A stretch of DNA of 57,412 nucleotides, filler included, from Circinaria calcarea (GCA_051942165.1; 3 parts of 3 records of this genome joined end to end with filler, not necessarily neighbours in it), one strand, 5' to 3'. Positions 908-22,917 are shown, counted from the whole stretch's first letter. The notes: generated by a model from the letters alone, not told the origin. A program made the numbers and translations.

Positions 908-3900
908 TTAGATCGGAATACCCTACCTATACGTTAGGACCAAAATTTCAAGCCAAAAACCAGGGAGACTTACGAAAAGGAAAGCCAATTCCCTTTCTCC
1001 CAGCCTACCGATGCTCTGGCTAGCTTTCTCATCCAACGCTCCTTCTATGACCGCTCGCTTCTTCTCCTGCAGGGCAATGATACGGTCTTCCACAGTATTT
1101 GGCACCAGGACTCGATGGACCTGCACCGTTTTTTTCTGTCCGATACGATGGGCTCGATCAATCGCTTGCTCTTCAATGTATGGGTTCCAAAACGGATCAA
1201 AGAGAATAACCTGAGAGGCGGCAGTCAAGTTCAAACCAGCGTTGCCGGCTTTCAACGAGACCAGCAAGATCTTGCAATCCTTCTTGTCGCTAAAGTCAAT
1301 CACGGCATCATTACGCGCTATGGCACTCATACTCCCGTCGTACCTTTCCAGTGTTAGTCCAAGGGATTGACATGATTAGCAGTTAAAGCGTGACAACATA
1401 CCGACGGTAGCCCCAATCCTTCTTCTGGATGGGGATCTCGAGAAGATCGAGCAATGAAGTGAACTGGCTGAAGATAATTGTCTTCTCGCTTTCTTTGCGT
1501 TGTTGAATGGAATCCAATATCTCCAACGTCTTCTCGATCTTTGCACTGGTCACCCAATCCTTCTCGAGACGCTTAAGATACTTGCGGCGAGCCCTTGCAT
1601 TCTTGTGGCTCTCAGCCTTGAGCTGTGCAAGAGTCTTTTTGACATGATCATCCGCCTTTCCCTTGCCCTTGATCGTTGATTTCTTTTGCTTCTTGGCCTT
1701 GGGCTTCTTAGCCGACCTTTCAAAGGGGGTGTTGCCTATACGATATCCTTCTGTATCGGTATCATCGTCGTCTTCAACATCGTCATGCACAACGAAGCCA
1801 CCCAAGTCATCTCCCTCATCGCTATCGGATTCAGAGTCGCTATCACTCCCACTGTTTTCTTCAATGTCAACTACCGCGCCGCCCACATCCAAGCTTTCCG
1901 CTTCAACCGCTTCTGGCATATGTACTTTTTTGAAGGAGTTGTAATCCGTAACTTTACTTGGTTCGACCTTGCCGCGACAGTTTGGACATTTCACCGCGTG
2001 GTTTCCCTCGCCTTCGGCGATAGCTTGCGAGGGATCTTGAATCTTCGTAAAACATTCCGAACAAGTACTGTGACCGCAGGGAGTAAAGATGGTAGCGTTT
2101 TCTATCGTGTCCATACAAATCGGACATTCGATCGCACCTTGACTTTTGATCCGCGCGACTACATCAGCGCCAAGGCCCTTTGCGAGTTCGAGCATGTCTT
2201 CGACCGAAACTCCTCCTGTAGCCCCACCAGCACTTATGCCAAAATCCTTGATCAAGTGAGGGTGGCAGCAAGCTTGTCGGAGACGCAAGAGGAGGACAAG
2301 AGCATTGGAGTAATTCCTCCCAAGCGTTCCGGCTCTGAGATATTTACTCACGGTTAACTGTGTTTGGGTCTCCAACGCTCGGTAAAACTGTTCCTCATCC
2401 TCGCTGAACACGGCATGTTGGATTTCAGTGACGCGTTCTGGTAGTTCCAGTATCGGCTTTCCATCTATCATAGACTTCTTGGTGCGGCGAAGGAGGACCG
2501 CTTTTAATAAAGCTTGGAGTTTCCTCATCGCTTGGTCCTTTGCACTTTGACTCGAACTCTTAAGCGGCCTGGTAAAGTCCTGGAAGTCGTCAGCCAAAAG
2601 CAAGACCAAAATTTACAGCCCAACTTACAACACTGAATCTTTCGTGTGAGTTGTATGGCTTGATACGCAGGAAATTGATCAGAGAGTATAGCTCATTAAC
2701 GCTGTTCATCATCGGAGTTCCGCTCATACAGATTCTGGTCAATGATTGTAATTCGAAGGCGGATTTGGCTGCTTTCGTCGATTTGTTCTTGATACATTGT
2801 GCTTCGTCAAGAATCACCCTATCATGACATCCTGTCAGAGAAAAATAGTGGTTATCAGTCATCACTTCTCAGGGCTACTCACCGATACCACTTGCATTCA
2901 TCTCCTAGAAGAGTGAGACGATCGTTTGCACTCATCGGCCGCCAATTAGCATTTCCTTTCTTCGCCATGTCGATTTCCTCTTTGCGTTTCAACTACAGTG
3001 CGTTAGCAAGATATGAGGCGGCCGTCCTGATCATAGCTTACTTCAGCAGCGAGCGTTCCATAGGTGGTAAGAACGACGTCGTATCTCTTGATCATCTCCC
3101 AAGTTATGTTCCTTCCTCTGGAGTGGTAAATATACGTGCTCAAACGATGCTCCCGCCCAGGCTTAAGACGCAGGTCTATCTCTCTTTCCCATTGCTTCAG
3201 AAGGGCTACCGGCGCCACGATCAAGGTTGTTTTACGATTCGGGTCTGTAGACTTCCGTGTGACCATCAAAGCGATGGCTTGCACTGTCTTCCCAAGGCCC
3301 ATGTCGTCAGCCAGGATACCGCCCTTGTTTGAGCCTTCTTCCATTTTTTGTAGCCATGTAAGCCCGAGCTTTTGGTGCTCGTACAAGGGCGAGGTCACAC
3401 TCATAGACTCCGGCGTTCCTACTCGGCTATTTGGAGGTATGAATTCATCTGGCCGAATGTTCTCGAATAGAGTCCTCATCTCCGCTGCTGTCCTGCTTGG
3501 GTCGCCTGTGATATTCTGAATGCGTTCAACGTGTTCTTCGTAGACTTCACGACTGTGAGGATTGTTGACATTAACCATGGCACCGTATGTACCGTTGAAC
3601 AGGTGGTTATTCGTAGTGACCTGTTGAGAGCCAATAGGGTAGTCTATGTCTAAGTCGATAATCTCAGGATTCGTAAGTGAATCTGGCATAACCTGACCGT
3701 ACGGGTTACTGTGGCTATTACTGTATCCCTGACTGTAGCCGTTACCGTATCCAGAAGTTGGTGCCGAATAAGCACTGGCCTGTGGGTTTAGAAGATTGCT
3801 AACCCCACTCACTGCGCCCGTCAGCACGTTCGATATGCCTTGACCGGCTGCGTTGAAAGCGTTTGACCAGCCATTCACCGAGAGACTGTTGATCCCGGTG

Positions 3901-5027
3901 TTGTAGGCATTCTGATACGAGTTATTGGGAAGAGCCAACGGTGCGTATGACCCTTGGAAGTCTGTTAGAGGGGTCTGGTCTATGTCCGTCCAACATTCTT
4001 TTCTGGCAGATCCACCGTTATTCGCATATCCTTGATTCCCAACCCAAGCTATAGGGTTGGAGGGTGAAACGCTTGGTTGAAAGCTCGTTGGCCCTAACTC
4101 TACTACATCACTGTTCGGGTGTTCCAGTTCAGCATCGGAGTCGTCATCGCTACCTAAATCGATAAAATTTGAGTAGTCGTTTGGAGGTATTTTGCTTGCT
4201 GTAACCTGACCTTCCCTCTTGATAGCGGATGGATTAAAAGTGGGCATCCCGCCAACGCTCTCTTTCGTCGGGTTAGCAGGGGTCTGAGAGGACGAAGGTA
4301 GCTGCGGCGGACGGAAGCTTCTGGCAGTATCAAAAAATGGATGCGTTGACGTGTATGAGGTTGAGCCTTGGGTGGTTGAACTGGCTGATGAAGGTCTGTA
4401 CGGCTCTTCCTGTAACTCTAGAAGTCTAGCGATGTGCTCATCTTGACGCTCCTGCTCTACACGGTCTCGGGCCGCTTTCTCAAGCTTCTTCTGCTCTTCA
4501 AGGACCTCACGCATCTCATCTTTAGGATTAACACCCAAAAGCCGGAAGAGCTCCGGATCGTCCGAGAGGTCGAAGTCTAAAGATGAAGGGGTGGTTGTTC
4601 CTGTTGGAGCTGGACTTGGCGTTATTCGCATAGACTTGCCATCACGACCAGTAGAGAGGCGGTTTGAAAGGTCCATCGACTCCCTGGGTCGTTTCCTACT
4701 CATGCTAGGTAACGTAGGCAATGCCGGTGAGGACCCTGTTGAGCTCTGTTCGGAGTTCGAACCAGCTACAGAAGAATCACCGGTATGTACACTCGTTGAA
4801 AGCCGAGGAGTTTGTAATTGCATGTTATTGCTCAGAGGTGGGAAACTCCACTGGGGTTCTTGAGCCCGATAATTTAGGTCCATCACGACTCCATCAGAGG
4901 CAAAGTGACCATTGTGGTCAGAAGCGCTACAAATGTCGGGATGGTGAGGATCAGGCTCACTCGCAGCGGCTGACCCTTCTTGTACCGGCGTCTGCTGCCC
5001 TAGGTAACTCACAAATGGGTTATTCAT
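908..5027 (-). CDS. SNF2-family ATPase/helicase with inserted RING finger (ULS1/RIS1/Rrp1-2-like, RAD5/16 group); 6 coding exons
   Basis: Motif I region GGILADDMGLGKTVQAIAL, motif II VILDEAQ, III SGTP, RING CPIC..CGHSTCSEC..CPNC, and HELICc SLKAGNAGLNL..QAIDRAHRIGQ. Introns (minus) 3041-2993, 2882-2819, 2628-2580, 1401-1344 and 973-923 restore one frame ending GIPI* at 908. The long disordered N-terminus has SIM-like FIDL/IIDL motifs. The start at 5027 is uncertain. Confidence 0.9.
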
Positions 5028-6909
5028 AGTCTGACTGCACTGACAGGTACAGGCCTAAGTTCACAGACTACCCTTATCGCCTTGATCTTTTCAAAGGCCT
5101 TGCCAATCACAGAAGCGTCCAAAGGACCAGGTATCCGATCTAACCTTCCCTCCGGCAAAGCGTTGAAAGCTGCACTCGTCACAGGAAATTCGGGGATCCT
5201 GTTGGTACTAGCGGATGTCAGAGGTATAAACTATCCGCCGACCGCTCCAGGTAGCTGTTAACAACCGTTGCAATAAAATGCTATTTTTGGGCCCTGACTT
5301 CTTCTTTGGTAGAGTGGATCTCCCCCCTCAGGCAGTGGAGCTCCGCTAAGGTTTCACTTCACTGTGATGGCGATTGGATGTAGGGCGATTCGACGAGATT
5401 CTCTTTTGTCAAAAGCCACAGCCTTTGGTCCTAATGCAGCTGGTCCGGTGTGAAATTCTAGTGGATTTGTTATGGCTGGTTGATATGGCAAGTTGTCGTC
5501 TTTATTGGCCATGGAGATAAGGGGATGGTAGACTGGAGGAGAGCTTCGACATGGATGTGAGGGTACGGGGCTGATGTCAGGCTTGGCCGCTGTCAACCCC
5601 AACTGTTAACAACCGAGAACTGAGCATTCATCTGAAATCACTTCGCATGTAGGATGAAGAGGGCAGGCACCGACCTCAGGAGTTCAATGTCGGAAAATTC
5701 AACCTTGATGGTAGCCTTGGGGGGTGTTGAAAGGGCCACGGAACCTAATTATCCTGGTTGCAGGTGCAGGATACCTCAGGATAGGCAAAGGCTCGAACGG
5801 GTCGGTTTAGGCGTGCCGTCGACGTGGCAGAGACAGTGGGCACTCTCTACTGAAGGAGGGAGGAGGGCAGGAGAGTTGAAGTATTCGCGCGTTGAAGGTC
5901 TGCTCGCTACCAGAACTGCCTCCAAACTCGTATGACGCGCCGTTCGTTCACCCCAATTCCAATGCACTCACTTGCACTTTCTGAAGCGAAGGGAACCTTA
6001 CCGAAGCCACCTTAGCCTGGCGCTAGATCCTGCCCTTTCCTTCCTACGCTAGACAGGAGGCCTTACAGGGCCGTCGGTGAGTGTTGGGTCATCATTCGCA
6101 TTGAGATTACCCGTGACGATCAGTCTCCCGGCTTCAGTGCCCGGGTAGTGGTGGTGGTGGTGGCAGCAGTCTTCTACGCCGTTCAGGAAGGGGCGGCATT
6201 CATCCATTATACGTACAGAGAAACACAACTCCTGAGCTAGCAGCGGCGACAAAGAAACCGGGCGACAACCAGCCCGCTTGATTGTTCGCACTACCTTCCG
6301 GCCAACGAGGCTGTTGTGCAATGCGAAGACGACGAATCCGCTTCTCATCCTCCACCCCCGCTAAAGACTCGCGCCTCTGCCACGCCGGCACAGTCCCAAG
6401 ACAGGTCATGGTCACCTCAAGATGCATGCAGCCTTCACGGAACTAGAATTTTCTCGAGGCTTCACTACCTCGAAGGGCTAAGCTGAATTTCGTGGAATCG
6501 TTGGGATCCAAAGGAAAAGCTGGACAGCAAACACCCAAGCGCCCCGGCCCTGAAAGTGAAATCCTTGCCGATATTTACAACCAAGCAGGCAACACAACGA
6601 ATATCTTCGCGTCGACGGCCTCCACCTCTTCGATCTACCAACTTACAGTTACAGCTCGAGCTAAAAGGTCCAGACACAAGCTTCCGTCCTCCAATCGAAC
6701 CTTACCCCGACTCGAAAACACCGGTGGATGGAGCCCTTGCCTAAACTGCTCCATTTCGGCCCATCACGGCATGATACGAGTGAGAAGTGTTGAGCCAGTC
6801 GGAAAGGAGTCGGAGGCGGTAGAATATCAGAATGCTCATCGTCGACATCCCATAATAAATCAGGTCAGATGTAGACTTGACAGGGCGTGTTGTTGTACCG
6901 AAAGCAGCA

Positions 6910-9900
6910 TCATCCACTGTGTGATCGCAGCAATACCTAGTTGAAGGTTAGTGACGTATGGGTGTAAAGTTGAGAAGCCAAAGAATCATACCCGCTCCAG
7001 TGGATCCTGTTGGTCCATAGTAACTAAAGCCGGGCTTTCCAGAATACCCATATCGAGGGGCCCCGTGGTCGTGGTAGCACGATTTTCGAGCACCGGTCTC
7101 TGAAGCTGGTGCGCTAAACTTGAGCCGCGAGAGTGGGATCCAGAATTCTTCGTCGGTTCCGGGGGATCGTCTTTTGCAGACAGCCTAGGTTCTGTACCAC
7201 GTTCCAGAAGCTTCCCTCCTAGTGTAGCACACTTGAGGATGGTCTGCATCATCTGGTTCTGCTTCAAGGGCTTTGAAAGATATTCGTCCATTTGGGCTTG
7301 GATACACTTTTCTCGATCGCCCAACATGGCATGTGCCGTAAGGGCAATGATCGGCGTCCGGACAAGCCCTTGCTCTCTCTCGTAATCTCGAATCTTTGCA
7401 GTGGCTTCAAAGCCTCCCATGATAGGCATCTGCACATCCATGAGGATGACGTCGAACCTCCTCTTTTGAATGGCTTCAAATGCTTCGAGGCCGTTGTTCG
7501 CAACAGTGACACCATGATGGTACTTCTCGAGGATCTTTACAGCAAGCCGCTGGTTGACCTCATTGTCTTCGGCAAGGAGGATATCGAACGATTTCATGTG
7601 GTCGGATATGGATGGAGCAGCTCGACCTTCCAATGCCGGAATCATGCCATTCCCAAGGTCGATCAGCTTGCAGGGCGTGGTCATATAAGAGGTGATGCCA
7701 AGGTCTAAAGCTGATTTCATGCTGACGGAAACAACGGGTGCCAATAGCACTATGGGAACATACTTGAATTCATCAACATTACGAAGCTTGACCGCAGTAT
7801 CTATATCGTCGACCAATATAGCGTCGTACGCGTGACTTTTGGACTTTGATGAAGTATTGTGTAGTTCGGGCCGCGGCGCTTGCTTCTCCGTACTTACAAC
7901 TATTGGAATTAATTCCAATTGCCTCAGCATTGCCGTAACTTGGGTAGCGTAGCGAGTTCGCCCCTTGTCGATAAACAGTACCCGGTGGTTCTTGTACGGT
8001 TTCAACTGCGTTGAGAGGCCGGCAGTGTCGAGCGGCGCAAGTTTGACCACGCATGTAAAGAAAAATGTACTACCTTGCCCGTAATTAGACGTTACCCAGA
8101 CGTTCCCGCCCATGAGATTGACTAGCTTCCGAGATATCGACAATCCCAATCCAGTGCCGCCGAATCTCCGAGTGGTGGAGCCATCAGCCTGCTGGAATGT
8201 GTCGAAGATTAGATTAAGCTTGTCCGACTGTATACCAATACCTGTGTCAGCAACAGAAAACTGGAAAGCGTACTCGTCAGGAGCGTGCTTGATGTCTGTG
8301 GTGCCGCCGATAACAAGTCTAACTTCACCATGTTCGGTGAATTTGATAGCGTTGCCAACAAGGTTAAGAATGACTTGTCGAAGACGGAATGGGTCCCCGA
8401 TCACATAGTCAGGAACCGAGCTGTCGACCTGATAAGCCAGATCCAGGTGTCTATCGTTCGCTCTCACGGCCAGGGTCTTGAGAGCATTGAATACGGTCCC
8501 CCTCACAGAAAATGGAATTGCTTCTATCACCATGCGATTTGCTTCGATCTTTGAGATGTCCAGTATATCATCGATGATGGTTAACAAGCTATTTGCCAGA
8601 TTATGGACAATATTCAGCATCTCCCGCTGATATTGCGTCAAATCCGTATCCAGGGTCAGCTGTGTCATGCCGATTATACCATTCATCGGCGTTCGAATCT
8701 CATGACTCATGTTTGCAAGGAATTCGGACTTGGTCCGGTTGGCAAATTCGGCAGCTTCTCGGGCACTCGTATTTCTTTGAATGCTATCCCTGAGGCTCCA
8801 AACCATCTTATTGATCTTTCGCTTCAGCTCGTCCATCTCCCCGGAAGCATTTACGGTAATCAGCTTTGTAAAGTCTCCATAGGTGGCTGCGTCTGTTATC
8901 TCGCCAAAGGCACGAACCTGCGAAGTTAGATTCTCCGCCATGGTATTGACGTCTTCCGTGATCTCTTTCCATCTGCCTCGAACATTATCAACGTTGGCTT
9001 GTCCTCCCATCTTCCCGTCCACACCGACATCGCGGGCGACCCTCTTCAACTCACGCGCAAAGGTGTCTAACTGGTCGACCATCTCGTTAATGGTGACCTT
9101 CAGTTTGAGAACCTCGCCTTGAGCCTCGACCTCGATCTTCTGGCTCAGATCACCTCGGGCAATGGCCTGAGTGACATCGGAGATTCCCCGTACCTGTGAA
9201 GTTAGGTTGTTCGCCATGATGTTAACGTTATTCGTCAGCTCTTTCCACTTGCCCTCCACGTTTTGCACCATCGCTTGACCACCGAGTGTACCGTCGGTGC
9301 CGACCTCACGAGCCACTTTACTCACTTCAAAGGCAAAGTTGTTAAGCCTGTCAACCATGGCGTTGATGGTGATCTTGAGATCTAGAATCTCGCCTTTGAC
9401 CTCAGCCTTGACCTTTTGACTTAAGTCGCCTTTGGCCACAGCTGTAGTTACTGATGCAATCTCGCGCACCTGGGTTGTCAAGTTCATAGCCATGACATTA
9501 ACACTTTGAGTCAAATCTTTCCATGTGCCCTGAACGTCATGAACTGTAGCTTGGCCGCCGAGTTGCCCGTCGGTACCTACGGCCTTTGCAATCTTAGTTA
9601 CTTCTTGGGCAAACTGCCTCAACTGGTCCACCATGGCATTGATGGTTGTCTTGAGCTCTAGAATTTCTCCCTTGCAGGATGCCTCCACCTTCTGGGTCAA
9701 GTCGCCCTTGGCTACAGCTGTGGTAACTGTGGCGATATCCCGAACTTGGTTTGTCAGGTTGTTCGCCATGGCGTTAACGTTGATGGTAAGATCGCTCCAC
9801 ATGCCCTTGACGCCCTCGATCTGAGCTTGGCCGCCGAGGACGCCTTCGGTACCCACATCACGGGCAACCCTCGTGACTTCTGTGGCAAATGTTCTTAGCT

Positions 9901-10999
9901 GGTCCACCATGGTATTGATGGTTTGTTGTAACTGCAAAATCTCGCCGGAAGCTTTGCGCTGTATCTTCAAGCCCAGGTTTCCTTCTGCCACGGCGGTAGT
10001 AACATCTGCGATTTCCCTGACCTGAACCGTCAGGTTTTCGGCCATATCATTGACTAGACGCAATCAGAATTTCTCTACAACCTGGTTGCGATAGGACTTC
10101 GTACCGTTCTTTGTCAATTCCGCCCAAATACCACTGACACCGGTAATCTGAGCTTGGCCCCCGAGCTTGCCTTCTGTTCCTACTTCCCTAGCGACTCTTG
10201 AAACTTCACTTCCAAATACCTGTAGCTGGTCCATCATGGTGTTGATTGTGTGTTTGAAAGTAGTGATCTCAGGATCCATCTCCACCTCATGTATAAGAAC
10301 CTTGTGGCTAAGATCTCCATTGGCAACATTGGTGATGATGGTGCCAATTTCCCTCAAGGCCTTCTGGAATGCTTCATTTGCTTGCTGGTGTTTGTGGAGT
10401 TCACGCTGTAACGTGGTGATATCCTTATGCTCCACGCTGACGGAGATCTGCTCAGCCCGCTCTTGTTGCTGATGGACTCGATCACAAACGCTCGCAATTG
10501 TCTCCCGCTGACTCTTGATTTCGTTTGATTGTTTCTGGACGTGGTCTCGAAGCTGCTCGAGCTCTTCTTCCGTAAAACTTCTTTGGCCTCCGTGACCGTT
10601 TTCTCGTACCGCCAGGAGATTGGACACCCGAGCATGTCGAGCTGAACTGGTCGATCCTTGACGTGCTGGTGTACTGATGTGGTCTTCGGCTGCCCCCACG
10701 TGCTTCAGATCGAACGGTGACGCCGCAAGTCCGAACTCACTCGGGGTATCCGGTAAATTGTGGGTAGTTGTAGACTTCGCTTTAGCCTCAAGGTATTGGA
10801 CCCTCGCTTCGAGCGCCGAGAGCTCCTTTTCAAAGGACCGCTTCGCAAGGCTGTCAGAGCCCGGCAATTTGGCCTTGGCCTTGACTACCCCATTGACCGA
10901 TGCAAGCTTATACTCGGGCGGGTCGTAGGGGGGAGTTGCACCTTTAGCAAGGTTTCGGATAATCGCTGTTGCAGCGGCAAGCGTCTCGTCTTCGCACAT
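6910..10999 (-). CDS. nik1: Group III hybrid sensor histidine kinase (poly-HAMP, HisKA, HATPase, receiver); osmosensor, NIK1/OS-1 orthologue
   Basis: Repeated ~92-aa HAMP units (..[28 protein letters not shown]), H-box [16 protein letters not shown]-box [11 protein letters not shown] boxes DTGIGI and GGTGLGL, receiver [13 protein letters not shown] at 10999 (MCEDETL); introns 10104-10054 and 6991-6937; last exon VLLRSHSG*. Confidence 0.95.
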
Positions 11000-12210
11000 G
11001 TTGACTTGTCGGGTTGTAATTACCAGAGCATCGGGTAAGGTATGACCGACAGTCGGCTTTCCTGAATGGATTCCAGGTGAACGGCAGGGGAATAAGCTGG
11101 ACCAGGCTGCCCACCGTTCCAAGTCACGATTGGATCCGGCCGGTGCTGACACGAGGAGCGCGAGGATCGTATCGTCTGGCCGAGATCCAGCAGCTGCAGC
11201 AGATGACAGGAGACTCGCAGTGCGACCAGACGGAGGTCGGGCAGGTAAGGTGAAGAGGGCTGAACTAAGAGATGAATGGGCGGGAGAAGGGAGATTGAGA
11301 TCGTCCTACCCCAGGCCGGACCCTGATATAGCGTCAAACTCGGTCATCCGTCAGAGATGTGGTGGGTGAAAGAAAGTGCTCCGAAGTACCGACTGCAAAG
11401 TAGACTGGATGAAGCCTTCAGCACAGTGAGTGTATGGACTGCTCCCAGAGAGAGACTGACTTCCGAGGGGGAATAGGGAATAGATTGATTTGACGCCGTT
11501 ATAGCTCGGGCATGTCTTGGCAATGCTCCCCACGTAGCCACGCTTAACTGCACTCGGGCAAGCCAATAGGACTTCTGACCCCTATTGATGGACATCACCT
11601 GTGGAAGTCATACGTCGGAAGCACGATACTGGCCCCCATCTACGAATCTACTGGGATTTTTCATGACTGCAGCTGCCCGAGCGAGTGTCTTCGGGTATAT
11701 CTCTCGGTGTGATATGACCGATACCATAGTCGACTGCCCGAGCAGCTGCTGTCAAATAGGCAACTGACACTATGACGGTTGTTGCACCGCAGGTCAACGC
11801 TGATAGAATCGTTGCATGTGCTTATGCGAGGGAGCAGACAAGGGGAGCTATCCGGGCTTGGGAAGACCACAGTAATAGGGCAAAGGTCAATCGACTGCGA
11901 ACCCTAGGGTCTATGCGCCTCGTTCGCGCCTTAGAGAAGCGATGGGCGCTAGGGGAATGGTGAGTGGTGAGACGGGAATTCGGGCACAATGGATTAATGT
12001 GCTCGACTGGTTAGACAAGATCTTTGTCCGACCTCTCCGTGATCAGTCGTATCTGGCAATCTACACAGCTGCCTCGACGGTACAAGCTGTGCTATTTCCG
12101 CTTCTGCTAAAGTCTCGGCTCTACCTTAGCCAAGCATCGTAGCACTCGACCATGCGTTTGGCCAGCCCCTTATGGTTACACATCCCCATCCACTACTTCT
12201 TGCTCTGACT

Positions 12211-15200
12211 TCACATACTCCTCGTTGTCCGTCCCCCTCCTTTCTGACCTTTCCTACCGCCTGCTGCCTCGCTTCTCCGTCCACTCCGGGTCTTTTTAAC
12301 CCATCCCGGTCCCGCCGGCAGCCCTTTCGCCGCACCCCGGTCCTCATACTCACTGTCTTCCGGATCCACCGCATCGCTGCTCACCGTGAGGTCTACGACT
12401 TGAGACCCGACCGGTATCTGCGACGCGCGTGGAGTGCTCATGGTCTCAAAATCCGATTCTCCGTCGTTGGAGCTCGCCAAGACATCCGCGACGGAGAAAG
12501 AACGCTTTGTCCGCTGTGATTGAGACTGCGATTGTGCCTGTGATTGAGATTGAGACCCTGGGAGTTTTGACTTCTTGACTCTCGCGCGTTGAGAGCTGAC
12601 AACGGGGTAGTCGTCTTCATCATCGGAAAGGGTGAGAGCTATACGAGATTTGGCCGTGGAGTCTACTTCCTCCGTTACTGGGAATTCATCCAAAAGATCC
12701 GAGTTTACACCATCCAGCCCGCCTGTTCTCGTAGGGGCATGAGTAGACTGAGCTGTCTTTTCTTTGCCTATTGCTTCCGGATTTCTTGGAGGTGGTGAAG
12801 GATGAGAGAAGAGTCTTTCGGGGAGGGTCGTTTGATCGAAACCGAACTTCTTGGAGGGGTCCGATGAATAATCATTTCGAATTTCATCCTCCTCATATAG
12901 GCTGTTGGACATGTCTTGGCCATTGACAAAGCCGTCTTCAATTTCCTGACGAGACTGCAATTGAATTGGGGAGGATATCTCCGGGAGCTCAAAATCATCT
13001 TGTTCAAGGTTCGATGGTGTCACACGTGTGGCAGCCAACGTATCTGACATTGGTTTGCTGCCTTGTTCTGCTGGTGGGCTAGAGCTGAACCCATTGAATT
13101 TCGGCGATAAAGCAGGATAAGAATCATCCTGTGCTAGTGGTTGGTTAGAATGGTCTGCTAACACATGTTTTCCGAGTTCACGGTCGACGTCAGAATGCAC
13201 ATCAGAGCGGAAACCGGCATCCTTGATCAAGATAGAGATCTCCTTTCGAGTTTCTTCTGTAAGCTCAACGTATCCTCCTCGCTGATCAACTTGATCAATG
13301 GCTCTTTCGACTCTCTCTTGATAGGGTAGATCGCCACTAGTATCCTTGACCCAATCTTCCTGCGGTTCTGCGTTCTCTTCCCTGTCATTTTCGTTAGGAG
13401 ATTGCAAATTCTCGTCAGCATCCACCGTGTTTGACAGATCAACAGTTTCAATTATCGGCTGGAAATCTTGGCGCGATAATTGCTCATGAGCGTTCTCGGC
13501 AGGCCTAATAAGCTTTGGCTCGATCATTTCTTCGAAGCTGAGCTCAATAAAGCCATCTTCGCCTTGTATATCCTCGGATTCGTCGTCTGGTACTTCAAAT
13601 TTCGAGTAGATTCTTTGCCCTGTTTTCTCATCATATAGCTTCGCCTTGGTGCTGGGTCGATCTTGTTGCGCTAGGGTCATTTCGAATCTGTGGTTTTCTA
13701 ATATCCTGTCAATTACAGCAGTCCTATATGTCGACACTTGAGGCTGCCAGCTTGTCTCCTGTGACATTTCTAGTTGCTTGAATGCAATGACTGCTCCAGG
13801 TGCTGCAAGATCTTTGGCCAAAGTAGCATAAGACGAAAAATCTGCTTGAATGCTCGATAGACCATTCACCGGCGCACTCTGGTTGACCGGTGCTGCAGAT
13901 ATGTCATGTGCGTCTCGCATAAGCTGTTCGTCGACCGCACCCTGATATTCGTCACTCGGAGTCTGATGTATCGCCTGCTCTTGATCGTTATTAATGCCAT
14001 TGGTATCTGTGTTATCATTACCATGCTCTTGCTGTTCCACTGGAGTTCCGTAGTCTTCATACTGCACTGTATTTTCATCCTGAGCGTAAGTCCTATTTCG
14101 CTTCCGCTTTTTGCTCCTACTCATACCAAGCCCACCGCTGGAAGTATTTGAACGGCCTTGCTGCTGCGGGTCCCATCTCTGAACAAAAGGAAACGGCGGT
14201 ATGCTCAATTCAACCCCATCATAACAACATTCAACGGCCTTCAGAACTATCTTATCCTTCCAGTTGTCATCTCCATCAGGGGAATTACCCCTTAGATTAG
14301 CTACTGACAAATCTGTAGAGTTGTTGTAAGACTGCGGGACCAGTCTAATGTTTTCCTTAAGCTTCTCTCGCATCTTTTCCTCATCCTTCTGGCTTTTTGG
14401 GGTTCGCAAGCCCAAGGAGCCGAACAGCAACCGTCGTGAACTCGCAATGTCTAATTTGGCCCGTCGTCGGGGAAGTTGTGAGTCTATCACTGTAGCCTGC
14501 GATGGATGAGAACTCTCTAGAGCGTTGAGATGATCGTTCTCAATCTTGGAAATATGAGAAACGTGCGTCGTGTCCTCTTGGTCGGCATAAGCTGCTGCAG
14601 TAGGGGTACCGTCTCTCTCTGTAGCTGATATAGCAGGTATTTTCGGGTCAGGGGCTGCAACCTCCAAGGACACATGTTCTTGGCCATCTGCTACCACGTT
14701 GGCACGATCTGCCTTGGTTGAGGGCTCAACTTCGACGCCGCCAGAGGCTATGGAGTCAAGAAGTAACTGTCTCCTTGCTTCGAATTCTGCACTGGTATTC
14801 AGCTCCTCTCCGCTTGGTTTCTCTAATGTTGCGAATGCTGTTGTCGTTTCCCACTTTGATCGCCTTTCCGAAACGATTGAATCAAGATTCGTGTCATTGG
14901 ACTCCGGAATCTCAATTGTGTTAGGATCCGATAGCTCGGAAGGCGGTTTCTGGTCCAGTAAGTCTGACTTCGTAGCGTGGGGTGGCAATATTCCAATCCT
15001 CTTCAAGTGCTGGAGCTTCTTACTCTCCCTTCGTCTTTGGTTACGCCTTTGGGTCTGCCTTCTCCCCAGTCCTGGTGGTCTATGAGCAGGGTTGTGCTGC
15101 GCATTATTCGGACTGTTCTCAGAAGCTGCTTTGGCGTCGGGGCGCTGTTCATACTTCTCACTATTCGATCTAGGGTCCCGAGCTGAGATGGAAGAGGATT

Positions 15201-16602
15201 CTGGAGATCTAGAATCCGAGCTGCTTGTAGAAGACGAAACTAGAGAAGAGGAAGTCTCGGAGCTGTCTGATTCACTTGCAGAAGACACTATAGAGCTAGA
15301 TTGCTCTGGCTCCGAAGAAACCTATTCTATATCAGTCCACCAATATTATTTTAATTTAAAGCTAGGCCATAGCGGCGGCATTCAAGGTATGGGGTTGCCA
15401 CAGTCACTAACCTGACCACCAGGCTCGACATTTTCCTTGTTTGACTCGCTTGAGTTGCTTTCAATTGCCTCGTTAAATTCGAAGTTCTCGTCCTCAGAAT
15501 CCTCACTGCCATCGGCTTCCACTATAGTAGCGGGGGTCTTTGTTTCATCTTCTTGGAATCGTACGCTTTTCATACTTGCGCTCGAGCTCCGTCTACTGGT
15601 TTGCTCTGGAATCAGCGATCGGCGTGTAAGGCCTTTTGCGCTGTTTGGCCGCGACTTCTTTCCTTGCAAATGCGTAAAGCCCCTCTCGACCTGAGGTTCA
15701 GGCTGATCTTGATAATACTGCTCTAGAAGTGGATTATGGTATTCTCCAGGGTATTGCCTACCATTCTCGTCCACAAGTTCCAAGATACCTTCCCCTTGTA
15801 GTCCTAAACCCTGCTGTCCTCTCCGTCGACGAGATCTTGTAAGTCTACCAGAGGTCCGCGCGGTTTCATCTGGATGGACTGTCCGTTCGGCATCTTCCAA
15901 TAACCAAAGCCCATCTTCGTCGACACCGTCAGTCAGTTCGTCCCTGAGATCGTCCAATTCTGCTTCTAAATCTTCACCATATTCAGCATGGGGTGCGAAG
16001 TCGTCATCATCAGTATTGCCCTCAGGCTCGCCAAGATCAGGACTCGCTCTGACGAAAATTTGCGTATTGGTCTCTGGCACACGGATATGGGCCTCAGCCT
16101 CTTCCTGCTCCTCATCATTCATAAGTCGTATTCGCTTCCTCGGTGGGATTCGTATGCTTGGTCTGTCCGCCCGCCGGAGAAAGGGCCGACCAAACGATAC
16201 GCCGTCGATAAGATGTCTACCGTCAGCGGAAATCTGGTGCCTACCAGACATCTTACGGTAGCGAAGATCGGTCGTCTGTAACGGCCTTATCCTGTATGGA
16301 GCGGACCTTCAGAATCATTCTGCCAGAGACCTTCCAAAAGCGACTTACGTGACTTCATCGTCTTCTTTCAATATCTTGAGTTCCGAGAAATGTAGGCATT
16401 CAAACCCTCGAACCTCGACGATATAGTCTTCCAAGCCCCATTCCTCTGCTTCCAATGGTAGGATTTCATTGACCTGTTCTAATAGTTGGGATATGGTAGT
16501 GCTGGCTTCGTTGACAGTGTAACCAGGACGGAAGCCCCCAACTGTCCATAAGACCTGGACTGGTGGCAGACCATGCCTCTGCACGGTCAATTGCAATCTC
16601 AT
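12211..16602 (-). CDS. Large low-complexity nuclear protein, probable coilin homologue (coilin-N-like domain plus coilin Tudor-like domain); 3 exons
   Basis: Introns 16348-16292 and 15411-15322 join three ORFs in frame. N-terminus MRLQLTVQRHGLPPVQVLW..TISQLLEQV..ILKEDDEVTIRPL; internal PGAVIAFKQLEMSQETSWQPQVSTYRTAVI; Ser/acidic and basic NLS-like tracts. Gene existence is well supported; the coilin identity is by remembered motif similarity. Confidence 0.75.
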
Positions 16603-16851: not shown

Positions 16852-17937
16852 CTATTTTGCTGCTTTTGACTTAGGTCTATCGGCATGTTTAGTCTTTGTA
16901 GAACTATCAGTATGGCCGCCTGTTAGAGTAGACCTGAGCTGAACTGCTCCCCCGCGCCGTTCTGGACTTTCTCGGAGGTTGTGGCTTTTACTTCTAATAG
17001 CCTCTTGCTCCTGCAATGCTTCTTCCTCCCGATCACTCAACAAGGTCCCCTCGATGGTCAAGAAGCTCTTTTCCCGATCCGAGGTCAGCGATGTGTCCAC
17101 ATCTCTAATCCTGAACCCCAACCGCCCCTCTACCTTGTTACCGTTCTCGTCTTCAAAGTACCCTTGCGTGTCCTGACCGTCATTCGTCGTTTGCGGCTCC
17201 TTTTGGCCCTTCTCACCTCCGGACGCTTCCGGCTCTGAAAGATTTCGAGCTTGCTTTGACTTCTCTTTCGACCCTACTTCCAATCCACCTTCTACCCATC
17301 TCCAGCTCGTTGGTAACCTCTTTCTTTCAATGCTCGCATTGAACAGGTTCCAACACACCAAGCCTAGATGACCCTCATTCTGTAAATTGACCCAGCCTTC
17401 TGTCCATCCGCCCTTTTGCGGCTTGAAGATGAGGAAATCTGCCGTGACCCAAACGAAGCTTGCTGCGTACTCGTTAACCGAGCGCGCCAGTACTGGTTCT
17501 TGCTGAGCCCCTGGTATTATGTCCCTTGGGTTTTCTGATAGTTGCGGGTTGCTGTATGATAGGACGACCCCTCGGAAGGGGCGGTGGTACGTTAAGATGA
17601 GAGGTGACAGGTGCTCAGCACAAATGCCCTGAAGGGGATAGAGCTGGGATATCGGTGAAAGCGGTAGGAGAAGGGACGAGGTCTGAGTATGAAACGGTGA
17701 GTGATCGGCTGAGTTGGATAGTAGGGAGGGATCCGAGCTTCCTCTGGTGGAATTTGGTTGTTCACTCGACCGCCGCTTTTTGGTCGGAGCCTCACCGGCT
17801 TCGAGATCTGGGTCGGCATCACGCTTGCGCTTTCTCTTTTCGTTCTTCTCCCGTTGCTCTGTACCATCTTTCACATCCTTTGCTTTCTTATAATTCTTTT
17901 TCCTCTCTTTTCTCTGGACGTTTGGCTCTGTTGACAT
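16852..17937 (-). CDS. RPA43: RNA polymerase I subunit RPA43
   Basis: SPFHTQTSSLLLPLSP..HLSPLILTY..GVVLSY..FVWVTADFLIFKP..GWVNLQNEGHLGLVCWNLFNASI is the fungal A43 pattern; Lys-rich N-terminus; first ATG at 17937; single exon. Confidence 0.88.
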   Translation of the reverse strand: MSTEPNVQRKERKKNYKKAKDVKDGTEQREKNEKRKRKRDADPDLEAGEAPTKKRRSSEQPNSTRGSSDPSLLSNSADHSPFHTQTSSLLLPLSPISQLYPLQGICAEHLSPLILTYHRPFRGVVLSYSNPQLSENPRDIIPGAQQEPVLARSVNEYAASFVWVTADFLIFKPQKGGWTEGWVNLQNEGHLGLVCWNLFNASIERKRLPTSWRWVEGGLEVGSKEKSKQARNLSEPEASGGEKGQKEPQTTNDGQDTQGYFEDENGNKVEGRLGFRIRDVDTSLTSDREKSFLTIEGTLLSDREEEALQEQEAIRSKSHNLRESPERRGGAVQLRSTLTGGHTDSSTKTKHADRPKSKAAK

Positions 17938-18176
17938 ACTGGACAATTCTAATCCAGTTTTTCTTCGCACTTTTTATGTTCATAGGGCCGAACTCTTTTC
18001 TTAGCTTCATGCATATGCAGGGATTCGAACAAGTCGCCTCGGCCCTGACGATCATCCGCATATCATTGACGTGCGTTTCTACATATCAGGACACTTTAGA
18101 GATGCGCCAACTCCAAATACCTTTGGACAGGAACATATAATGGGCTTTCGAGCAGTAGATCACCTTCATCAATGTG

Positions 18177-19863: not shown

Positions 19864-22650
19864 TCACCCCATTCTCTCCTCCCGCCTGGCCGGCCTCTCC
19901 GGGACATTCACCCCCCTCGCTCTCAGACTCTCCACCAAAGCCCAAAACTCCTCCTCCCCCTTCCACCCCCTCGACCCGTTCCGGAACAACGCCCTCTCAT
20001 CCACGACGTCCCTCACCAGATCCCGGACCAGATCCCACTCCTGCACCTGCGCCAACGCCCTCAGGACCCCCAGCAGCGCGATCCACCCGGGCGTTTTCCC
20101 TTCCGCCGGCATGCGGCGCAAAAAGGCGAGCATCTTTTCGATCTCGCCGACGCGGCTGTAGCCTTCGATCATGCGGTCATAGAAGACGTGGTCGGTTGGG
20201 GACTTGTCGAGCCGGATGCGCCGCCAGAGGCTGTCGATGGCGGGCAGGTTGGGCGGCGCGGTGGAGAAGTAGTGCGTGATGAGGATGGTGTAGATGTGCG
20301 GGGAGGGCTTGATGTTGCGGTCGGTCATGCGGGCGAGGACCGCTCGGGCGGCGGCGAGGTTGAAGGAGCGGGGGGAGAGGAGGCTGTCGAGGATGGTGCT
20401 GTAGGTGTAGGTGTTGGCTTCGATGCCCATGTCTTTCATGTCTTGGAAGATCTGCGAGACGGCCTTTTGTTGCTCTTCTAGACTTTGGGATTGGAATGAG
20501 CTGGTAGGGTTGCGGAAAAGACCATCGAGGAGGATGGTAAATGTTACTACGTCTGGTTGACAATCAGATTTCTGCATTTCTTGCAGGATTCGCTGGATTT
20601 CGCCTCTCAAGTCCTTACGAACGGCTGGTCGGAGTAGAATATTGAAGGTTGAGATGTCTGGCTTCACTTTTTGCAAGTTTGCCCACCGCAGAACCGTTTT
20701 GACAGCGTCAGTCTGATTCAACGCTATGAGTCCGGAGATCACTGTATTTATTGGAATTATAGAAGGCAAAAGTTGGTCCTGCTGAGAATCGGTCGTAGTG
20801 TCCGTATTTTGAGGGAGTATTGCGTCGGGTCTAGGCACGGTGTGCGTCGTTGACTTTTTCCATGCCCTGCCCAGTTCTTCGAGTGCTTTTAAAGCAGCTT
20901 GCCAATCCCTGCATTGGAGCAGACCGCTCAGATACATCCTCCACAGTTCGTTCCTGATCCGCACACCACTGGTCTTGATATTCTGCCAGAGAGTTTGTAG
21001 AGAGGGTAAGTCTCGAGCTTTCCTGCATCCATCCAGCATGGCAATCCAATGCTCCTCATATGGCTTACAGCCAGCCCGAACCATAGTATTCCAGACATCT
21101 ATTGCTTTATCTGGACGGCCTAATGCGGTGAAGCTTGCAAGGAACTCTGCGAACGCTTCACTGAGCATATCCGGTTCCACTTCATGATGTTCAATCTTTC
21201 GCTTCATACGGTCCCAAAGCTTGGTAGCATATTTGAGATCGGACTGTTTGACTGCTTTCCGTAGATCCATCGACAGAGTTGAAACTCTTTGCTTCTGAAT
21301 TGTGCTTGCAGCACTATCCTGTAGCTTTCGTATGACGGGTCGGGATTTCTCACAGAATTCCATCCTATTCTGCTCTTGCTCAAGTGTATTTCCTTGTACA
21401 TTATTCTGGAGGTGGTCCCATTGGTCCGTCAAGCGGTGGACCATGGGTAAAGGAATTTCCTCCTTTACAGCACAAGATTGTAGTATGGCATTGTCCAACT
21501 TGCTGCCTTTGATTAGCTCCACAACAAAACCCGAGAACAGTTGAGATCCAGAAAATTTCAAGTCTTCGGAGTTTCCAATCATCTCAATGTCACGTAGAAA
21601 TTGGCATGTCATGACAGCGGCTATTGCAGTGCTTCCAGCGGTGGACTGCATAGGACCTTGGGGAAAGAATTGGGTAAAGCGATCTCTAAAATCTTCAGGT
21701 AGAGTCTCACAAGACGCGACCACGTCTTCAGTGCTAGGCAATCCTGGCCATCCACTCAGCCCTGGAGATAATGATGACACTTTGTAGATTGGTATTGATT
21801 CCTTTGCTAGAAGCCTTTTTCTAGTATCTGGCCCTGATAGAACGCCAAAATTCTCCACATACACTTTCCAAACTTCAAGTGTATCCTTTAGTAAGCTTTC
21901 ACCAGCCCTCTTTTCAGGGTCATGAGAAGGGATGCCTTTTCCATCCAGTGTGTGCTCGACACGGCTATACGCACGCAGCAACTGCCATAGCACAGAATTC
22001 CACCAATTCCCCATCAAGCCATGCCGGACGTACCTTCCAATCACCTCCCCCGGTGTTGGAACAAGGGAAAGATCTGAAGGATTTGAGCGTCTCTCGACCA
22101 CGGCAAAGAGTAGATCTCGAAAAACGGTCTCCACTTCCAAGTTCTTATATTTTCTTATAGGTTTATCAGGAGCCTGAATGCCAAATGATGGCAAGTTCTC
22201 CAGAGCAACCCATACTTTTTCTACAGGCGCTTTCTCTATATAGAGCATGCCTCCAAGTAGAGCAATATCATCCTTGAGTGCTTCAACATCGTTCTTTCCT
22301 GCAATAAGGGTTGCATTCAAAGTTTTTGAATAGCGAGACTTTAAGGGTAACGTTGGCATCCGACGTTGCGTTGATGTAAAAAGGTCCTCAAGGAGGTCGT
22401 TTGTGACGGTAGACTCGACTTTGCGTTGGCGCGGCCTGGTTAACTGCTTGCGATGCCATCCTTGTGCTTCCGATTGAGGACCGCTATGAGCTTCCCTTGG
22501 TTGCGATTTGGGAGCATCAGTGCTGCCTTGTGGTTCCGGGTTTTTGAAGGAGATGAAGCTGCGACACTGAGGCTGGGACTGTCTTCGCGAGAGAAGAGTT
22601 CGAGCATTGATGGATTGTCGACAACGTACACATATGTATGGAGTGCTCAT
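19864..22650 (-). CDS. Pentatricopeptide repeat (PPR) protein, probably mitochondrial
   Basis: 928-aa single ORF; Arg/Ser-rich N-terminus (MSTPYICVRCRQSINARTLLSRR) typical of a mitochondrial presequence; ~35-aa PPR motifs PDISTFNILL, PDVVTFTILLDG, ANTYTYSTILDSL, PSPHIYTILITHY. Confidence 0.88.
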   Translation of the reverse strand: MSTPYICVRCRQSINARTLLSRRQSQPQCRSFISFKNPEPQGSTDAPKSQPREAHSGPQSEAQGWHRKQLTRPRQRKVESTVTNDLLEDLFTSTQRRMPTLPLKSRYSKTLNATLIAGKNDVEALKDDIALLGGMLYIEKAPVEKVWVALENLPSFGIQAPDKPIRKYKNLEVETVFRDLLFAVVERRSNPSDLSLVPTPGEVIGRYVRHGLMGNWWNSVLWQLLRAYSRVEHTLDGKGIPSHDPEKRAGESLLKDTLEVWKVYVENFGVLSGPDTRKRLLAKESIPIYKVSSLSPGLSGWPGLPSTEDVVASCETLPEDFRDRFTQFFPQGPMQSTAGSTAIAAVMTCQFLRDIEMIGNSEDLKFSGSQLFSGFVVELIKGSKLDNAILQSCAVKEEIPLPMVHRLTDQWDHLQNNVQGNTLEQEQNRMEFCEKSRPVIRKLQDSAASTIQKQRVSTLSMDLRKAVKQSDLKYATKLWDRMKRKIEHHEVEPDMLSEAFAEFLASFTALGRPDKAIDVWNTMVRAGCKPYEEHWIAMLDGCRKARDLPSLQTLWQNIKTSGVRIRNELWRMYLSGLLQCRDWQAALKALEELGRAWKKSTTHTVPRPDAILPQNTDTTTDSQQDQLLPSIIPINTVISGLIALNQTDAVKTVLRWANLQKVKPDISTFNILLRPAVRKDLRGEIQRILQEMQKSDCQPDVVTFTILLDGLFRNPTSSFQSQSLEEQQKAVSQIFQDMKDMGIEANTYTYSTILDSLLSPRSFNLAAARAVLARMTDRNIKPSPHIYTILITHYFSTAPPNLPAIDSLWRRIRLDKSPTDHVFYDRMIEGYSRVGEIEKMLAFLRRMPAEGKTPGWIALLGVLRALAQVQEWDLVRDLVRDVVDERALFRNGSRGWKGEEEFWALVESLRARGVNVPERPARREERMG

Positions 22651-22917
22651 TAAATTCCTTTAGCTATACACCTCAATAGGGAATATATTGATGCATAGTG
22701 AGCCTTTCGTCAAGCTTGGATTCGAGGCCAAAAGATCTCCGCGCTTGGCGTTCATCATCTACGAAAACGAACTTTCTTCATCGGCTTATCAACTTCCGTA
22801 TGAGCTCGGGGCATCCATTATGTGCATACTGAGGAGCCTAGCAAACTTCCACCAGACTTCACCAAAATCCGGCTTCATGATCCTTTCTAGAAAATGATAT
22901 AATCGCCGTCGTACACC

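Follow-up and report, generated by a model that had tools for sequence, protein, structure and literature searches.

In this study, we analysed a stretch of 57,412 nucleotides (nt), filler included, from the fungus Circinaria calcarea (GCA_051942165.1; three parts of the genome joined end to end, hereafter the window), and identified on its minus strand a gene (16602..12211) that probably encodes the Pezizomycotina counterpart, in a variant form, of the Cajal-body scaffold coilin and of the Schizosaccharomyces pombe protein Mug174. The predicted product combines an N-terminal domain of the Pfam family DUF7357 (PF24054) with a Tudor domain of the coilin type. As modelled, DUF7357 is a ubiquitin-like fold placed at residue 1 of proteins that carry such a Tudor domain. 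By analogy with coilin, the protein may organize Cajal-body-like condensates in moulds and lichen fungi.

According to published work, a fungal coilin orthologue had not been identified before structural prediction pointed to Mug174 (PMC9666668), and Mug174 was then experimentally shown to act as coilin (PMC11347179). The same two papers bear out the background given by an earlier reading of the window made from the sequence alone (the first-pass annotation), namely that coilin was long thought to be absent from fungi and that Mug174 has been proposed as its orthologue.

The Tudor and N-terminal domains

The two folded domains that carry the identification are located as follows.

13507..13842, minus strand: coilin-type Tudor-like domain, residues 872-983
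16138..16602, minus strand, interrupted by intron 1: N-terminal domain, residues 1-136, with a ubiquitin-like beta-grasp at about residues 1-93 followed by a conserved extension

Residues 872-983 match Tudor_Coilin (PF23086, 'Coilin, C-terminal Tudor domain') with 31.6 bits and an E value of 2.1e-7, above the curated Pfam cut-off, which is 27 bits for both Tudor_Coilin and DUF7357. The match is nearly end to end, covering model positions 4-102 of 105 (99/105) and remaining colinear through the long internal loop. When exon 3 was searched at E<=10, Tudor_Coilin was the sole Pfam family listed, and Tudor profiles of the SMN/TUDOR type gave no match. The AlphaFold2 (AF2) model of the region is a confident beta-barrel of the Tudor/chromo-barrel/LSm type, with a predicted local distance difference test (pLDDT) score mostly above 90. 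The canonical Tudor domain has a size of about 55 residues; the length of about 105 positions, taken together with the colinear match through the loop, favours the coilin subtype over a canonical Tudor domain. The domain includes a 30-aa (amino acid) motif, the exact translation of 13800-13711, from which the first-pass annotation had proposed a coilin Tudor-like domain, and the profile match upholds that proposal.

In orthologues from several fungal classes, Tudor_Coilin was matched at the homologous segment. It was found in seven of eight proteins of a first set. In a second orthologue set, 20 of 34 proteins gave a match at E<=1 and 9 of 34 scored at least 27 bits, and among the short-form family members scanned the count was 2 of 20. 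PF23086 is also precomputed on 22 of the 88 and 76 of the 120 relatives listed in two homologue searches. A local hidden Markov model (HMM) of the Tudor region found the domain in 321 of the family proteins collected, which argues that one homologous Tudor domain is present family-wide and that the patchy Pfam signal reflects limited sensitivity rather than absence of the domain.

The N-terminus is a full-length member of DUF7357, an uncharacterized fungal domain family, scoring 104.1 bits in exon 1 and 69.8 bits in exon 2, and DUF7357 was matched in every orthologue scanned (34/34 and 20/20). The AF2 model of the N-terminus of the closest named orthologue adopts a ubiquitin-like fold, for which Foldseek returned ubiquitin/SUMO at an E value of about 1e-3. 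Sequence searches of the PDB with the N-terminal profile, with exon 3 and with a whole-family profile gave insignificant matches or low-complexity matches to Ser tracts only. The N-terminal domain of human coilin is likewise predicted to be ubiquitin-like; its surface residues R8 and D79 drive multimerization, and R36 drives the binding of Nopp140 (PMC9556525). The fungal family, for its part, has an invariant arginine in the first strand, at position 2, and a conserved acidic residue ahead of the last strand.

With the DUF7357 clusters excluded, the ESM Atlas rows listed for the N-terminus comprised two clusters of Coilin_N (0.78-0.81) and one plant cluster without a name (0.78-0.82 over all three). 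These scores fall below the trust level of 0.9, and in the internal check of the search 3 of the ten best hits with a family agreed, a result that warns against reliance. Among these rows, no named Pfam family other than Coilin_N came up for the N-terminus, which we treat as a weak lead. The first-pass annotation had likened the N-terminus to the self-association domain of coilin: the ubiquitin-like fold and its position at the start of the protein stand, whereas the Coilin_N profile did not match and Pfam assigns the domain to a different family. Judging from the model, the N-terminal domain thus shares the fold class and position of the coilin domain, with one weak specific lead in addition, and is a candidate homologue of it at most.

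Gene model, conserved modules and family

The gene is organized as follows.

12211..16602, minus strand: whole gene, from open reading frames and sequence, with a 1414-aa product
16349..16602, minus strand: exon 1, starting at the ATG (16602) and ending 2 nt beyond the first 84 codons; opening portion of the ubiquitin-like N-terminal domain, matched to positions 1-78 of the DUF7357 model (E 7e-30)
16292..16348, minus strand: intron 1, 57 nt, GTAAGT...ACAG
15412..16291, minus strand: exon 2, 880 nt, with the end of the N-terminal domain, a motif resembling a nuclear localization signal (NLS) and acidic and Ser-rich disorder; DUF7357 positions 80-131 (E 3e-19)
15322..15411, minus strand: intron 2, 90 nt, GTTAGT...ATAG
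12211..15321, minus strand: exon 3, an open frame of 1036 codons plus stop (stop at 12213..12211)

In-silico splicing of the three exons gave a coding sequence of 4245 nt whose sole stop codon is terminal. The first-pass annotation had described a three-exon gene of about 1400 aa, in agreement with this model, and the N-terminal strings, Ser/acidic tracts and VVDLT motif that it had listed were all found in the translation. Upstream of the ATG at 16602, there is no further in-frame ATG before a stop codon. Both introns are short and have GT...AG borders of the fungal type. Intron 1 is supported by the DUF7357 profile, which is contiguous across the junction (position 78 in exon 1, position 80 in exon 2), and by the 1426-aa GenBank model from Sticta canariensis (P0016), the closest named relative, which has its junction at the same point.

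RNA evidence came from one biocrust metatranscriptome run, whose contigs cover a share of 0.07 of the window. Because these contigs are only 90-95% identical to it (minimum likeness 90), they represent the transcripts of a relative and not of Circinaria calcarea itself. In one contig, 15320 is followed by 15412 across a single substituted letter (depth 4.56, side 42), supporting intron 2; others cover much of exons 2 and 3, and none in that run covers exon 1 or intron 1. The gene is transcribed and spliced in a close relative. A second contig joint, from 15592 to 15762, skips 169 nt inside exon 2 (side 29, depth 3); its borders do not resemble those of an intron on the coding strand, and it is probably an artefact of assembly or divergence.

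Outside the two folded domains, the protein has these features.

16123..16149, minus strand: basic motif IPPRKRIRL at the end of the N-terminal domain; P135, P136, R137, K138 and R139 nearly invariant in 72 sequences
14983..15072, minus strand: basic motif GLGRRQTQRRNQRRRESKKLQHLKRIGILP; consensus VPPGxGxxxTxKRNQRRRxxKKLxxLKxxGxLP in 72-80 orthologues
14341..14469, minus strand: two-helix module (…SSRRLLFGSLGLRTPK…), SSRRLLFG.LGL; helical in the AF2 model at its residues 8-18 and 27-40, with a pLDDT of 83-90 over the block; near-invariant columns
14158..14262, minus strand: most invariant linear motif, WKDKIVLKAVECCYDGVELSIPPFPFVQRWDPQQQ; invariant W, E, C, L, P, F, P, F, Q and W in 80 sequences
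14095..14112, minus strand: KKRKRN, second NLS-like motif, read from the translation; consensus KKRKRN in orthologues
12214..13506, minus strand: acidic C-terminal tail, 431 aa, with 80 D/E versus 48 K/R and a net charge of about -32
12385..12399, minus strand: VVDLT followed by Ser/acidic residues at residue 1353, similar to a SUMO-interaction motif (SIM) and a putative SUMO-binding site

The N-terminal and Tudor domains are separated by a stretch of about 520 aa, acidic and rich in Ser, and then by several conserved islands (72-80 orthologues aligned). Composition, charge blocks and low pLDDT between the modules show this middle to be disordered, with NLS-like motifs. To judge from its sequence, IPPRKRIRL is likely an NLS, and the motif GLGRRQTQRRNQRRRESKKLQHLKRIGILP may serve as an NLS or as an RNA contact. 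The most invariant stretch of the family can also be written W.DKI...VECC.DG.ELS.PPFPFVQRWDPQQ, and the pattern PFPF.QRW is present in 108 of 153 full-length-like relatives. Since the WKDKIVLKAVECCYDGVELSIPPFPFVQRWDPQQQ motif is unfolded on its own in the AF2 model (pLDDT 48-59), it is probably a docking motif. A local profile of residues 663-767, which comprise this motif and the two-helix module, matches 321 of the family proteins collected.

The first-pass annotation had described an acidic tail of about 500 aa with a VVDLT motif; tail and motif are both present, although the tail is shorter, at 431 aa. It contains the small conserved motifs IKDAGFRS, SPKFNGFSS and GPGWVKK; the family patterns past the Tudor domain include DAG[FW]R and SP.F.GF.SS. 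The pattern [VIL][VIL]DLT occurs in 111 of 153 full-length-like relatives, at a median relative position of 0.95, and lies within the tail in 118 of 180 long-tailed members. We take VVDLT and the Ser/acidic run behind it to resemble the SUMO-interaction motif of PIAS-type proteins. An acidic tail with the SIM-like motif is present in most lineages, Circinaria calcarea included, and is missing in part of the family: among the 246 members with both domains, the sequence past the Tudor domain is at least 300 aa long in 180 and shorter than 25 aa in 38, of which 19 have 0-4 aa. The 707-aa protein of Periconia digitata (P0092) ends directly after the last Tudor strand. The existence of members that end directly after the Tudor domain suggests that the acidic tail is an add-on. 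Some Aspergillus models of 850-900 aa may be truncated annotations, while the short group of 670-800 aa looks genuine; the layout of these short forms is precisely that of coilin.

Two further observations concern the end of the protein. A subgroup of 670-850 aa terminates 0-5 residues past the Tudor domain (20/246; P0092, P0228, P0239, P0248, P0281 and others), and Periconia digitata is its only named source. In three orthologues from lichen fungi, Pycnora, Candelaria and Candelina (P0044, P0065 and P0066), the tail contains a significant match to the Pfam RPT domain (PF13446, about residues 1220-1310, 41-56 bits), which the Circinaria calcarea protein lacks.

The family is large. A 14-sequence profile of the N-terminus, run against a library of 1.84 billion proteins with representatives at 50% identity, gave 617 representative clusters at E<=0.001, 566 at 1e-10 and 272 at 1e-30, and the best 150 of the 617 matches were all strong family members. 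Among the 88 relatives of exon 1 listed (up to 76% identity), the nearest include the lichen-forming Lecanoromycetes Sticta, Trapelia, Xanthoria and allies; Xylona, Coniosporium, Periconia, Talaromyces and a number of Sordariomycetes are further removed. A search with the N-terminus of Talaromyces pinophilus retrieved 300 proteins, the best 120 of which include Aspergillus (fumigatus, a variety of nidulans, niger and flavus), Penicillium, Histoplasma and Blastomyces. The named matches listed are called 'hypothetical', 'uncharacterized', 'unnamed', 'DUF7357 domain-containing' or, once, 'Clumping factor B', and none is called coilin.

Within the N-terminal region, the loop that connects strand 2 of the ubiquitin-like domain to the helix is longer by 30-45 residues in members from Talaromyces and Aspergillus (alignment A3, columns 28-95), which also have a second insert ahead of an invariant WGLEDY. 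Some members of Eurotiomycete or Sordariomycete type (P0011, P0013 and P0015) carry, past the N-terminal domain and ahead of the Ser-rich region, a short helical segment of CUE/UBA-like character, with a weak Pfam CUE match in P0013 (E 0.075); the segment is missing from the Circinaria calcarea protein and from the Lecanoromycete consensus.

Relation to coilin, Mug174 and Eas1

The protein shares with the coilins of animals and plants (PF15862 plus PF23086) a ubiquitin-like domain at the extreme N-terminus, modelled here and predicted for coilin (PMC9556525), a long, poorly conserved disordered middle with NLS-like motifs, and an extended, atypical Tudor domain of about 105 positions that is matched by the profile of coilin itself. 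These elements follow each other in the same order, from the ubiquitin-like domain through disorder with NLS motifs to the Tudor domain (PMC9556525, PMC9666668), and, as in coilin, the Tudor domain is terminal in the short fungal members. Vertebrate coilin carries an RG box with dimethylarginine, which is bound by SMN (PMC9556525); the fungal protein has no such box. It differs from coilin also in that its N-terminal domain is filed as DUF7357 and is unrecognized by the Coilin_N profile, and in the addition of the invariant SSRRLLFG helices, of PFPFVQRWDPQQ and of the 431-aa acidic tail with its SIM-like motif.

Mug174, compared here by its published description only, localizes to nuclear foci and requires its N-terminal segment both for this localization and for the interaction with Tgs1; it binds the U2 and U5 small nuclear RNAs (snRNAs) and is required for the trimethylguanosine (TMG) capping of snRNAs (PMC11347179). 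Like the protein described here, it is fungal and has two distal folded domains separated by disorder (PMC9666668), and its link to coilin was missed by ordinary BLAST (PMC11369484). The long tail and the extra modules set the Circinaria calcarea protein apart from it. Mug174 is part of the Tgs1-Eas1-Mug174 (TEaM) assembly, in which Eas1 is SPAC18G6.13 (PMC13473130). Because fission yeast thus has two proteins that share a coilin-like N-terminal domain, Mug174 and Eas1 (PMC13473130), an N-terminal domain of the coilin type does not by itself identify coilin.

The existence of this second protein raises the question of whether the gene is a counterpart of Eas1 rather than of Mug174 and coilin. 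The two have a coilin/Mug174-like N-terminal domain in common, again as judged by description only, but the published description of Eas1 takes its similarity to Mug174 no further than the amino-terminal region (PMC13473130), whereas the Circinaria calcarea protein bears a coilin-type Tudor domain as well. Searches with the N-terminus, moreover, gave only the DUF7357 family and fragments among the matches listed (the best 150 of 617 in the profile search). Correspondence to Eas1 is therefore highly improbable.

Several results weigh against the identification as a coilin counterpart. The Coilin_N profile (PF15862) was unmatched in the protein's own exons and in eight orthologues at E<=10, as well as in 34 plus 20 further orthologues at E<=1, and, given that ubiquitin-like folds are very widespread, a shared fold alone is weak evidence. 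No RG-repeat box was found in the 1414-aa protein, which contains one RGG and, scattered, six RG and ten GR dipeptides. At 1414 aa, it is also about 2.5 times the size of human coilin. The Tudor_Coilin scores lie near the threshold (12.9-31.8 bits), with 25 of 34 orthologues below the cut-off and 14 of 34 without a match at E<=1. These low scores, the one for Circinaria calcarea itself being within 5 bits of the cut-off, would suit a chance or compositional match in a region that forms some other small beta-barrel, as would the Foldseek search of the 336-aa AF2 model against the PDB, which gave nothing at E<=0.001. We give this explanation very little credence in the face of a match that is colinear over 99 of 105 model positions, long internal loop included, that recurs at the homologous place in orthologues of different classes and that has no competing Tudor family, in a region whose fold is a Tudor-type barrel. 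Another explanation accepts the Tudor domain but regards the protein as a nuclear scaffold specific to the Pezizomycotina, related to coilin by domain-level homology or shuffling in that domain only and acting elsewhere, for example in SUMO-linked chromatin, rDNA or ribosome biogenesis. A separate Pfam family at the N-terminus, unmatched by Coilin_N, is consistent with this, as are the conserved SSRRLLFG helices, PFPFVQRWDPQQ and the SIM-like tail, which go unmentioned in the coilin literature examined; however, the order in which a ubiquitin-like domain opens the protein at residue 1 and a Tudor domain of the coilin type comes later is exactly that of coilin, the short members end at the Tudor domain, and the one named Pfam family that came up near the N-terminus in the ESM Atlas rows was Coilin_N. 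The Ser/acidic tracts do resemble ribosome-biogenesis proteins, and the gene adjoins RPA43, but the former is a low-complexity similarity, which is no homology, and a single neighbouring gene is no evidence of function. A scaffold of this kind is unlikely, although it is the strongest of the alternatives considered.

If the protein is indeed the counterpart of coilin and Mug174, it would be a nuclear, largely disordered scaffold built from the ubiquitin-like domain, about 520 aa of disorder with NLS-like motifs, the helical SSRRLLFG and PFPFVQRWDPQQ modules, the Tudor domain and the tail. If human coilin and Mug174 are taken as models, the N-terminal domain would mediate self-association and dock partners such as Tgs1 or a protein of the Nopp140/Srp40 type, the disordered middle would supply multivalency and phospho-regulation, and the Tudor-like domain would hold small nuclear ribonucleoproteins (snRNPs) with an Sm core. 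Through self-association, multivalency and snRNP holding, such a scaffold would bring the maturation of snRNAs, through TMG capping, together in a nuclear body. The most speculative step is that the SIM of the tail may add SUMO-dependent valency. A bolder version, which we put forward tentatively and with more doubt than confidence, is that DUF7357 is a divergent coilin self-association domain and that essentially all Pezizomycotina, including Aspergillus, in which canonical Cajal bodies are said to be absent, build a Cajal-body-like condensate for snRNPs and TMG capping on a coilin of 1200-1700 aa, in which the added tail contributes a SIM and the invariant PFPFVQRWDPQQ docking motif provides interactions for which animal coilin uses its RG box. 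If so, SUMO, rather than SMN and dimethylarginine, would be the second valency of the fungal body.

Published context and neighbouring genes

Mug174 was recognized in 2022-2024, after coilin had been thought missing from fungi, and we found no extension to filamentous fungi in the literature searched. The searched main text of the Mug174 papers and review does not mention filamentous-fungal relatives (PMC11347179, PMC11369484), and the literature searched contained no mention of DUF7357, PF24054, PF23086 or Tudor_Coilin and, judged mostly by title and the start of the abstract, no description of a coilin orthologue in filamentous fungi. A 2026 omics screen names the Talaromyces marneffei protein A0A093VAG7 (UniProt) 'Coilin' (PMC13689312); it is a possible member of the DUF7357 family, but no Talaromyces marneffei entry is among the best 120 of the 300 matches to the Talaromyces pinophilus N-terminus. 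Since Tudor_Coilin is already annotated on much of the family in public domain tables, the link has been latent in the databases, and the gain is incremental rather than surprising. What is new is that DUF7357 is linked to a ubiquitin-like fold and to the architecture of coilin, together with the short canonical forms, the extra conserved modules and the SIM-like tail. Should the identification hold, moulds, major pathogens (Aspergillus fumigatus, Histoplasma and Blastomyces) and lichen fungi would gain a testable Cajal-body-like scaffold and DUF7357 would gain a function. It would also mean that the RG box and the Coilin_N signature are dispensable, with the ubiquitin-like domain, the disorder and the extended Tudor domain being kept.

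The gene directly upstream, on the same strand (16852-17973, minus), contains the RNA polymerase I RPA43 OB domain (PF17875, E 1.9e-27) and lies about 250 bp from the ATG of the coilin-like gene. In six relatives (P0041, P0071, P0073, P0086, P0089 and P0091), PF17875 and PF24054 occur in a single protein, most likely because the two genes of this conserved neighbour pair were fused in the gene model. Two abutting open frames occupy 6986-11305 (minus strand). The larger, at 6986-10063, encodes HAMP repeats, HisKA, HATPase_c and a receiver domain, and we take it to be a hybrid histidine kinase of group III, like Nik1/Os-1; that at 10064-11305 had no Pfam match and may be the N-terminal exon of the kinase. 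The window further contains two ordinary fungal housekeeping genes, encoding a pentatricopeptide-repeat protein (19864-22659, minus strand) and a fragment of a SNF2-family helicase (3003-5054, minus strand).

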